From positions 9,368 to 73,367 of the forward strand of contig CAYRMW010000002.1 in assembly GCA_964425595.1 (NCBI GenBank): 64,000 nt of DNA, in the 5' to 3' direction. This document shows positions 27,003-28,907 of the stretch, in pieces. The position numbers and the translations under genes are program-made. Under the pieces are notes generated by a model. It saw only the letters and a list, made by a program, of their open reading frames with translations, searched no databases and had not been told where the DNA came from. The stretch is from an uncultured Lachnospiraceae bacterium. Lineage in GTDB: Bacteria; Bacillota; Clostridia; Lachnospirales; Lachnospiraceae. The stretch's first letter is position 1. Each line of letters starts with the position of its first letter.

Positions 27003-28907
27003 ATGGAAAGGTTTAAGGCAGTAAGGGATGACCGGCGCTATCCGCTGGGCGCCACGCCGGCAGAGGGCGGCGTGCATTTTTCCGTGGTATGGGCGGGGGA
27101 AAGTTGCCGTCTGCTGCTGTTCGGAAAAGACAGGAAAAAAACGGAGGCGGAGATAGACTTCTCCATCCGGGAGCGCATCGGCGATGTATGGAACGTAACA
27201 GTGACCGGTGATTTTCAGGATATAGCGTATTGTTATGAGATGGATGGCGTGCGGAAAGAGGATCCTTACGGGCTCCGCTTTTACGGGAGAGAGAAATGGG
27301 GTAATGAAAAAAATCTGTCCCGCGTTCTGTTCGCGTCCGCGCTGTCCGGCGTCTATGACTGGGAGGGGGATGAGCAGCCGGAGATCTCGTTTGAGGACTG
27401 CATCCTCTACCGGCTCCATGTCCGCGGGTTTACCAGGCACGTTTCTTCCGGTGTGGAAAACCGGGGAACCTTTGCCGGGATCCGGGAGAAGATCCCCTAT
27501 CTGAAAGAACTGGGGGTTACCACTCTGGAGATCCTGCCGCCGGTAGAGTTTCAGGAGGTCATGGTCCAGACCGGGCCGGGCCAGAATCCATACCTGCAGG
27601 AGGATATTCCTTCGGGAAAGCTGAATTACTGGGGTTTTGTCCCGGGACTCTTCTTTGCGCCGAAGGCCTCGTACTGCTCCGGCCGCGAGAAGGATCCGGA
27701 GAAGGAGATGAAGGATCTGGTCAAGGCCCTTCACCGGGAGGGGATGGAACTGATCATCGATCTGTTCTTCACCGGCCGGGAGGCGGAATGCTATGTGCTG
27801 GATGTGCTCCGCTTCTGGGCCAGAGAGTACCATGTGGACGGCTTTCATCTCATCGGCTATGTGCCGGCCGCGCTGGTGGGCGGAGACCCTTATCTAAGCC
27901 GCGTCAAACTCTTTTCTTCGTCATGGGAGGGGATCAATGGCGGCCGGCACCGGCACTTGGCTGAGTACAATGATGGATTCTGCATCGAGATGCGGCGTTT
28001 TCTGAAGGGCGATGAGGATATGCTTAACCACGTGATCGCCAGGACCAGAAAGAATCCGTCCGCCTTCGGCGTCGTGAATTATATGGCGAATACCAACGGC
28101 TTTACGCTGATGGATGCCGTTTCCTATGACCGAAAGCACAATGAGGACAACGGAGAACACAACCAGGACGGCTGCGATTACAATTATTCCTGGAACTGCG
28201 GCGTGGAGGGCCCCACCCGAAAGAAAAAGATCGTGGAGATGCGCCGGAAGCTGCTGCGCAACGCGTTCCTCCTTGCTTTCCTCAGCCAGGGGACTCCGTT
28301 AATTCTGGCAGGAGATGAATTCGGCAATTCCAAGAATGGGAACAATAACGCCTACTGCCAGGATAACGAGATCTCCTGGCTGAACTGGAACCAGATGAAA
28401 ACAAATAAGGAGCAGCTGGAATTTGTTAAGGCCGTGATCCGGTTCAGGAAGGCGCATCCGATCTTTCATATGCCCGGGGAGGCGAGGAATGTCGATTATC
28501 ATTCCCTTGGTATGCCGGATGTCTCTTATCATGGGGTCAAGGCGTGGTGCCCGGAATTTGAAAATTTCCGACGTCAGCTGGGGATCCTTTACTGCGGCCC
28601 CTATGCGAAGAAGGCGGACGGCAGTCCGGATGATTACTTCTTCGTTGCCTACAACATGCACTGGGAACCGCACGATTTTGCGCTCCCGAACCTTCCGAAG
28701 ACCATGCGGTGGTTTGTGGCGATGAACACCGATTCCCGGGATGGGACGGCAGTCTGCGCGCCGGGAAAGGAACTCTTTTTGGACAAGCAGAAGCAGTATC
28801 TGGTCCCGCCGAGGACGATCGTGGTGTTTATCGGGAAAGTATGGGGAGAAAAAAAGAGCAAAGCCGGAAAGAAGGGGAAGGGAAAGGATGAGGCAGAGCG
28901 CGTTTAA
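27003..28907 (+). CDS. GlgX/isoamylase-like GH13 protein with substituted catalytic motifs (predicted inactive)
   Basis: ATG 27003 follows GAGAGGAG. It has a CBM48-like N-terminus and strong GlgX blocks ([52 protein letters not shown]). However, regions I-IV read [29 protein letters not shown] and [11 protein letters not shown], so the Asp/Glu/Asp triad and the conserved His residues are absent. Confidence 0.8.
   Translation: [634 protein letters not shown]

Follow-up and report, generated by a model that had tools for sequence, protein, structure and literature searches.

A predicted catalytically dead GlgX/isoamylase-type protein family conserved in Lachnospiraceae

The gene at 27003-28907 and loss of its catalytic centre

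The window analyzed here is a 64,000-nucleotide stretch of DNA from an uncultured Lachnospiraceae bacterium (assembly GCA_964425595.1, contig CAYRMW010000002.1, positions 9,368 to 73,367 of the forward strand). On its plus strand, at 27003-28907, it carries a gene for a 634-residue protein of the glycogen-debranching GlgX/isoamylase type, here called pseudo-GlgX, which we predict to be catalytically dead. The original prediction, made from the sequence alone, had described the product as a GlgX/isoamylase homolog with all four GH13 catalytic motifs replaced, encoded by an intact frame with a good ribosome-binding site. The mechanical open reading frame (ORF) spans 26850-28907 (+), and the ATG at 27003 gives the 634-residue product; alignments of homologs to the window protein begin at its residues 1-14, and a GGAG lies 9 nucleotides (nt) before the ATG. 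The following features (residue numbers as amino acids, aa) could be placed within the gene.

27003..28907, plus strand: coding sequence of the predicted catalytically dead GlgX/isoamylase-type protein, 634 aa, P0001 (ORF, profile, structure and model evidence)
27042..27254, plus strand: N-terminal CBM48-like beta-sandwich, aa 14-84 (Pfam CBM_48, 26.7 bits, cutoff 22.4; model strands)
27753..27782, plus strand: region I remnant, aa 251-260, Asn-His lost (alignments to structures and homologs)
27831..27860, plus strand: region II remnant, aa 277-286, Arg replaced by His, nucleophile Asp absent (alignments)
27906..27929, plus strand: region III remnant, aa 302-309, KLFSSSWE, acid/base Glu replaced by Ser306 (alignments)
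28083..28109, plus strand: region IV remnant, aa 361-369, MANTNGFTL, His-Asp replaced by Thr-Asn (alignments)
28125..28211, plus strand: retained GH13_11 signature ending in SWNCGVEG, aa 375-403, including E385 (invariant or near-invariant columns)
28311..28367, plus strand: retained GH13_11 signature, aa 437-455, including N449 and Y451 (conservation in 120 members)
28503..28838, plus strand: C-terminal beta-sandwich domain, aa 501-612 (Isoamylase_C, 18.2 bits, below the cutoff of 27; model strands)
28839..28904, plus strand: Lys-rich C-terminal tail, aa 613-634, predicted disordered

Assignment to the GlgX/isoamylase group was borne out by several lines of evidence. The NCBIfam model TIGR02100 (glgX) matched with 330.6 bits (E = 1.5e-98), below its trusted cutoff of 640.9, and Pfam PF00128 (Alpha-amylase) reached 33.9 bits over the whole protein, above its gathering threshold of 22, with a best stretch that covers residues 149-179 only and that by itself falls below the threshold. 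These profile matches are weak for the length of the protein. Among solved structures, a phmmer search of the PDB by sequence placed Sulfolobus TreX/GlgX first (2vnc; E = 5.6e-76, 259 bits), followed by ISA1 from Chlamydomonas, rice and Arabidopsis (237-243 bits) and then by the Streptomyces and Escherichia coli GlgX proteins; direct BLASTP alignment to E. coli K-12 GlgX gave 30% identity (E = 4e-63). An AlphaFold2 model calculated with the family alignment had a predicted local distance difference test score (pLDDT) of 95.1 and a predicted template-modeling score of 0.93, with disorder only in the last ∼22 residues, and Foldseek superimposed it with template-modeling scores of ∼0.8 on rice, Chlamydomonas and Arabidopsis ISA1, Streptomyces venezuelae GlgX and TreX, and of 0.73 on ISA2. 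As modeled, the three-domain GlgX/isoamylase architecture is complete, with a CBM48-like N-domain, a (beta/alpha)8 barrel and a C-terminal beta-sandwich. The Lys-rich tail that the original prediction had pointed out is also real, and its pLDDT of 48-56 marks it as disordered.

Alignment by sequence and by profile to structures with known catalytic residues placed no Asp/Glu/Asp at the catalytic positions. Specifically, the TreX nucleophile D363 aligns to a gap beside L283-I284 of the window protein, the TreX acid/base E399 aligns to S306, and TreX H470-D471 align to T364-N365; D363, E399 and D471 are the published catalytic residues of TreX. The region II Arg is replaced by His282 (family tally H63, R32) and the region IV His by T364 (family tally H33, Y32, T15). 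In region I, DVVYNH has become DLFFTG, in which the Asn-His is lost and the Asp is kept as D253. Hence the claim that all four motifs are replaced stands for regions II to IV and for the Asn-His of region I, but not for the region I Asp. The same four motif replacements appear in the BLASTP alignment to E. coli K-12 GlgX. Deletions accompany them: active GlgX enzymes have 26+18 = 44 extra residues after query residue 256, just past region I, in agreement with the roughly 40 residues originally reported as missing between regions I and II, and further extra residues after residue 283 (10-14), residue 355 (8) and residue 80 (13). The GH13 protein encoded at 10260-11975 of the same window, which had been put forward as a control, does retain DLVVNH, GFRID, GE and NHD and scores 443.5 bits with Pfam Alpha-amylase. 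For pseudo-GlgX, the sequence predicts no alpha-1,6 debranching activity.

Breadth, selection and conserved residues of the family

A word-indexed search returned 8000 scored candidates. The best 120, which are 55-85% identical to the window protein over nearly its full length and which, where named, come from Lachnospiraceae, Clostridium sp. or Eubacteriales, carry the same replacements without exception (120/120): region II reads H-V-D-G-[IVF]-H-L-[VI]-G, T, Q, V, P, A or D occupies the acid/base position, and region IV reads N-T-N-G-F-T. An exhaustive search of representatives at 50% identity gave 1542 clusters at E ≤ 1e-30, the best 150 of which score 409-608 bits at 38-56% identity, compared with 259 bits for the best active-enzyme structure. 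In the motif strings for these best 150 of the 1542 representatives the nucleophile Asp occurs 0 times, the acid/base position is variable or gapped, and region IV sometimes retains His-Asp; both the nucleophile and the acid/base residue are missing in every member inspected. By sequence, the pseudo-GlgX family comprises at least 150 clusters at 50% identity. Among the matches listed, all named hosts are Lachnospiraceae, namely Blautia, Roseburia, Butyrivibrio, Pseudobutyrivibrio, Oribacterium, Acetatifactor, Mediterraneibacter, Faecalimonas, Lachnobacterium and Robinsoniella, and a contig scan of genomes listed at least 600 stretches; the restriction to Lachnospiraceae holds among the matches listed. 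Recurrence of the replacements on this scale is more than chance, and this is a widespread Lachnospiraceae family and not a peculiarity of one genome.

In a neighbor-joining tree of 120 pseudo-GlgX and 42 active GlgX sequences, which contained no ISA2 sequence, all 120 pseudo tips fell in one clade with 0 active sequences inside. Mean identity within this clade is 40%, compared with 51% among active GlgX proteins from many phyla. The tree and the identities fit one ancient loss, after which evolution sped up but stayed under constraint. Measured against an 85%-identical ortholog (L091), the ratio of nonsynonymous to synonymous substitution rates (dN/dS) of the gene is 0.076 at a dS of ∼1.2, which is comparable with the values of 0.035 for the flanking xth and 0.021 for murA; by segment it is 0.05 across the former region II-IV stretch, 0.03 in the beta-7/beta-8 part, 0.03 in the C-domain and 0.24 in the tail. 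The pseudo-GlgX gene is therefore under strong purifying selection.

These data bear directly on the possibility that the gene is simply decaying and has no maintained function. The loss of all catalytic motifs and the lower identity inside the clade are what decay would produce, but the frame is intact in hundreds of lineages, and in 120 diverse members (down to 34% identity to the window protein) 25 columns are invariant and 51 more are ≥90% conserved. The high-confidence model and the gene's own promoter-like site and ribosome-binding site argue in the same direction. Decay in close relatives had been named among the findings that would overturn the original prediction; the relatives instead show constraint, including across the segment that once held regions II to IV, and we consider decay effectively refuted. 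The proposal of a maintained non-catalytic function is supported by the intact fold, the low dN/dS and the presence of the substitutions throughout a large monophyletic family, and the protein is very probably a maintained non-enzyme.

Comparison of alignment columns between the 120 pseudo-family and the 42 active GlgX sequences separated what was lost from what was kept. Thirty-three columns are conserved in active GlgX alone, and these include every catalytic position and every surrounding −1-subsite position; at the region I His, 120/120 family members have a gap. Seventy-three columns are conserved in both groups, among them NYWG (with W210), the region II structural Asp, GFT..D, HNExNGE, SWNCGxEG and GDExG...GNNNxYCQDN. 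Indeed, the signatures that follow beta-7 and beta-8 (HNExNGE, SWNCGxEG and GNNNxYCQDN) are invariant or nearly so in the pseudo family and are common to the 42 active GlgX proteins. Columns conserved specifically in the pseudo family number five, K221, L334, D498, W515 and Y534, the last three of which form a patch in the C-domain region found solely in this family.

That pseudo-GlgX might still be an enzyme, with a non-canonical active site or another chemistry (transferase, phosphorylase or lyase), was weighed against these columns. Strong purifying selection would be expected of an enzyme, a subset of the family retains His-Asp in region IV, and the beta-7/beta-8 loops carry the invariant polar residues N380, N383, D389, E402, D438, E439 and D454. 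However, these polar residues are equally conserved in active GlgX and hence do not mark a new site, and among the five gained columns there is no replacement catalytic constellation and no new polar cluster in the barrel. Across the family, moreover, the nucleophile and acid/base positions are hydrophobic, variable or gapped. A precedent from plants points the same way: rice ISA2, which has I458/D495/S566 at the triad positions, is inactive and gained no activity even when its triad was restored (PMC12218847), which indicates that pockets of this kind are broadly disabled. A residual or novel enzymatic function is thus highly improbable.

The residues that contact sugar in active GlgX were affected unequally. 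In the S. venezuelae GlgX (SvGlgX)-acarbose complex, H271, D342, E378, H449, D450 and W380 contact the −1 subsite, and E470, N534 and Y536 contact the other acarbose sugars (PMC9530166). We transferred these contacts through a Streptomyces ortholog in the alignment, for which the numbering offset is constant at +15 or +16; a further sugar contact, R212, had no reliable mapping onto the family alignment. At the −1 subsite, H271, D342 and E378 are without a counterpart in the pseudo family, H449 and D450 are mostly replaced, and W380 is kept in about one third of members. The outer contacts are retained: E470 corresponds to E385, which is kept in 117/120 members and is thus held more strictly than in active GlgX (28/42), N534 corresponds to N449 (120/120), and Y536 corresponds to Y451, which is Y or W in 119/120.

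The match to S. venezuelae GlgX among the Foldseek hits also raised the idea that pseudo-GlgX is a receptor for cyclic diguanosine monophosphate (c-di-GMP). The c-di-GMP site of that protein, ExR(X)6R in the N-domain, has been described as specific to Streptomyces, and neither E. coli GlgX nor TreX has it (PMC9530166). It is lacking in the window protein as well, and we rejected this idea.

Genomic neighborhood

In the window, pseudo-GlgX stands in the order murA-like gene, metK, xth, pseudo-GlgX, XdhC-family gene and then luxS on the opposite strand. The neighboring features and expression signals are as follows.

26034..26789, plus strand: xth (exodeoxyribonuclease III), upstream neighbor (TIGR00633, 326 bits, cutoff 99)
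26800..26856, plus strand: GC-rich hairpin followed by a U-run (RNA fold −36.9 kcal/mol, z = −4.6)
26898..26926, plus strand: promoter-like site TGGAAA-17-TATAAT (10/12 consensus matches; a consensus match only)
26990..26993, plus strand: Shine-Dalgarno GGAG, 9 nt 5′ of the ATG (read from the sequence)
28888..29805, plus strand: XdhC-family gene (Pfam XdhC_C and XdhC_CoxI; NF045664, 245 bits, below the cutoff of 350)

None of 200 shuffled sequences folded as stably as the hairpin at 26800..26856, which with its U-run is likely the intrinsic terminator of xth and so separates xth from the pseudo-GlgX gene; it was not among the sites listed by a consensus terminator scan. The promoter-like sequence is the sole such site within 26600-29900. 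In the nearest relatives (L091, L001, L002, L006 and L086-L090) an ABC-F gene lies between xth and pseudo-GlgX. This gene is missing in the window, where the 213 nt of 26790-27002 hold the hairpin with its U-run and the promoter-like site. Downstream, the XdhC-family gene overlaps the 3′ end and stop codon of pseudo-GlgX by 20 nt, and because of this overlap the two genes are probably co-transcribed; the overlap recurs in L091 (20 nt) and L092 (4 nt). The XdhC-family gene is maturation-factor-like. There is no molybdoenzyme gene in the Pfam annotation of the ORFs from 19184 to 32885.

In all, 85 loci from named genomes were typed by their motifs as pseudo-type (38) or canonical (47), and the neighbors within 6 kb were clustered. 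The commonest order around pseudo-GlgX is gltX, UvrD-like helicase, a divergently oriented DUF1292 gene, pseudo-GlgX, DUF5662 and trpS, and the recurrent neighbors are housekeeping or uncharacterized genes (gltX, UvrD-like helicase, DUF1292, DUF5662, trpS, xth, ABC-F and luxS). In 13 loci (L009, L010, L013, L016, L017, L019, L020, L022, L024, L027, L031, L038 and L046) the DUF5662 gene lies 11-99 nt downstream in the same orientation, and in 17/38 it lies within 710 nt. The product of this commonest downstream neighbor, ∼180 aa long, has His-rich motifs; it had no sequence match in NCBIfam or the PDB and thus offers no hint of function. The pattern is thus that of a core gene inherited vertically along with a block of housekeeping genes, and pseudo-GlgX belongs neither to a carbohydrate locus nor, at any of the loci typed, to a glycogen operon. 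In Lachnospiraceae the genes for active GlgX are scattered too, so the context is neutral on a role in glycogen metabolism. We rejected xth as a general operon partner, since it lies upstream in 10/38 pseudo loci only, all in the query's subclade, and since the hairpin with its U-run and the promoter-like site intervene in the window.

The neighborhood nevertheless invites a reading in which the fold would no longer serve glucans and would instead be that of a protein associated with the nucleoid or with DNA repair, or of another polyanion-binding scaffold. Exonuclease III is encoded directly or one gene upstream in the query's subclade, including a 46%-identical member in which all other neighbors differ, and 14 other loci have a UvrD-like helicase gene upstream. 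Pseudo-GlgX is also found naturally fused in frame to an Ogt/MGMT module whose PCHR motif is intact (P0123; loci L086-L090, for example, L086:8001-10397), on at least 24 contigs from different metagenomes. Non-homologous K/R-rich C-terminal tails of low complexity, which evolved repeatedly, are present in 101/270 family members; such disordered tails occur in 35% of pseudo members compared with 14% of active GlgX, and one tail matches the histone-H1-like HC2. The core is also less acidic than that of active GlgX (net charge −9 vs. −24). Each of these observations has a counterpart, however. The linkage to xth is confined to the ten loci noted above and is interrupted in the window, a divergently oriented DUF1292 gene separates the helicase from pseudo-GlgX, and the syntenic block also holds tRNA synthetases and luxS, a pattern accounted for by gene order that was passed on vertically within one family. 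Only one lineage carries the Ogt fusion. The tails are mixed in charge (mean net +2), absent from most members and fast-evolving (dN/dS 0.24), and the core has a pI of ∼6 and no DNA-binding domain. A polyanion-binding scaffold of this kind is improbable, and the specific form in which a dead GlgX scaffold would act as a DNA-repair- or nucleoid-associated protein, possibly recognizing the sugar-phosphate backbone, or nucleic acid that is damaged or glycosylated, is quite improbable.

Several other features of the window were recorded. A sugar-utilization cluster at 3243-11978 encodes a LacI-type regulator, an ABC solute-binding protein, two permeases, a GH31 alpha-glucosidase-like protein and the active GH13 enzyme used as a control, which is closest to models of the TreC/oligo-1,6-glucosidase type and scores below their cutoffs. 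An ORF of 827 aa at 20450-22933 (+) had no Pfam match at E ≤ 1e-5. At 31611-32885 (−) there are two adjacent rubrerythrin-family genes, with a rubredoxin-like domain that is C-terminal in the first product and near the N-terminus in the second; a rubrerythrin gene is also syntenic in L086-L090.

A candidate non-catalytic glucan-binding protein and its known counterparts

On the sequence evidence, the best reading of pseudo-GlgX, on which we place about even confidence, is that of a maintained non-catalytic alpha-glucan-binding protein and an independently evolved bacterial analogue of plant ISA2. It is a cytoplasmic, stably folded, predicted dead paralog of a GH13_11 (GlgX/TreX/ISA) debranching enzyme and represents an old monophyletic Lachnospiraceae family. 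The ancestor lost the triad together with everything else at the −1 subsite and with the loops that wall the cleft after beta-3 and beta-4. What the family kept is the three domains (a CBM48-like N-domain, the barrel and the C-domain) and those residues that, in active GlgX, grip sugars away from the scissile bond. Such a protein could bind glycogen or limit-dextrin without hydrolyzing it and serve as a lectin-like scaffold or a regulator of storage-glucan metabolism. It might act by itself, or pair with the active GlgX paralog known from the same genera in the way that plant ISA2 pairs with ISA1. The retained outer contacts E385, N449 and Y451 are the main positive argument for a glucan chain that would be held uncut. 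The fold, the catalytic loss, the purifying selection, the breadth of the family and the retained outer contacts are shown by the data above; that the ligand is still an alpha-glucan, and that there is any partnering, we infer.

As context, Blautia wexlerae stores abundant branched alpha-glucan, as measured by an assay that does not separate amylopectin from glycogen (PMC9388534), and a published survey counted two glgX homologues in Blautia obeum (PMC10395257). Among the genera covered here, active GlgX proteins with all four motifs were found in Blautia, Roseburia, Butyrivibrio, Mediterraneibacter and Lacrimispora.

Several observations weigh against a glucan-binding role. The retained sugar-contact residues may be conserved for structure instead, and with the cleft-shaping loops deleted and the whole −1 subsite unconstrained, the binding groove would be heavily remodeled. 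It is not obvious what the K/R-rich tails would contribute to the binding of a neutral glucan. Probes made from E. coli GlgA, GlgC and GlgP matched 0/45 pseudo-type loci, and a genuine glgB lies near pseudo-GlgX in 1/45 loci only. Finally, co-occurrence of dead and active GlgX is established at the level of the genus. The one glgB is in an Oribacterium metagenome-assembled genome (L008:12648-14810), ∼0.9 kb downstream of pseudo-GlgX, and its product is 40% identical to E. coli GlgB.

A stricter version of the parallel with ISA2 would make pseudo-GlgX an obligate partner with little function of its own. In a hetero-oligomer with active GlgX it would adjust the stability of that enzyme, its affinity for substrate or its choice of branches, and in this way the architecture of the storage glucan. 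Rice ISA2 binds amylopectin more strongly than does ISA1 and flanks the ISA1 dimer, docking on N-terminal segments of ISA1, which itself dimerizes tail-to-tail (PMC12218847). The nucleophile has become Ile in both proteins (I284 here, I458 in rice ISA2), a parallel that holds only at that position; the same genera harbor active as well as dead paralogs; two glgX homologues are reported for B. obeum (PMC10395257); and the pseudo-specific patch of D498, W515 and Y534 lies in the C-domain region, ISA1 being a tail-to-tail dimer (PMC12218847). In contrast, dead and active genes were adjacent in 0/38 pseudo and 0/47 canonical loci, the two copies were seen together at the level of the genus, the origin is independent of plant ISA2 (117-127 bits to ISA2 compared with 237-259 bits to ISA1 and TreX), and rice ISA2, which docks on N-terminal segments of ISA1, carries an additional N-terminal domain that the window protein lacks. 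We regard obligate partnership as unlikely.

Whichever role the non-enzyme has, its annotation matters. The best 120 homologs are labeled "alpha-amylase" or "alpha amylase C-terminal domain-containing protein", pseudo members in Blautia pseudococcoides and B. marasmi are labeled "glycogen operon protein GlgX", and others carry "isoamylase" (JGI) or "Glycogen debranching..." (Robinsoniella, UniRef; sequences P0300-P0305, P0292, P0294 and P0380). A predicted dead-enzyme family is thus systematically over-annotated as active, in metagenome-assembled genomes and in reference genomes of major gut commensals (B. pseudococcoides, B. marasmi, B. hansenii and Robinsoniella), and its members were probably counted as debranching capacity in glycogen surveys, as for the two glgX homologues of B. 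obeum (PMC10395257). Debranching counts, and metabolic models based on them, would be inflated. If the protein tunes the architecture or turnover of glucan, it would have a bearing on gut persistence and cross-feeding. The family should be tractable, as the protein looks soluble, has a high-confidence model and is present in cultivable strains.

The original prediction knew of no described bacterial equivalent, and our targeted literature searches likewise found no paper describing a bacterial family of catalytically dead GlgX proteins. This would make pseudo-GlgX apparently the first independently arisen bacterial counterpart of plant ISA2, and a natural experiment in the conversion of a GH13 debranching enzyme to a binding module. 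Non-enzymes have arisen from GH13 proteins elsewhere: rBAT and 4F2hc, the heavy chains of animal amino-acid transporters, are GH13-derived binding or chaperoning subunits. They belong to a different, oligo-1,6-glucosidase-like GH13 lineage, are membrane-anchored and eukaryotic, and are partnered with transporters.

Among closer relatives, pseudo-GlgX shares its fold, its domain order and the 73 co-conserved columns with active GlgX, TreX and ISA1 (2wsk, 2vnc and 7u39) and differs from them at the catalytic motifs, where Asn-His (region I), Arg and Asp (region II), Glu (region III) and His-Asp (region IV) are missing. With ISA2 (PDB 9j6x_C and 9xvi_C) it has in common a GH13_11 three-domain architecture, a replaced triad (I284/S306/N365 in the window protein) and conservation as a predicted non-enzyme. 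Unlike ISA2, it is a cytoplasmic protein of a bacterial host with a housekeeping gene context, does not have the extra N-terminal domain of ISA2, and has ∼44 and 10-14 residues of cleft loops deleted. Its phmmer scores to the two ISA2 chains, 127.1 and 117.5 bits, are about half of those to ISA1 and TreX, and the bacterial family forms its own clade among bacterial GlgX proteins, all of which points to an independent origin.

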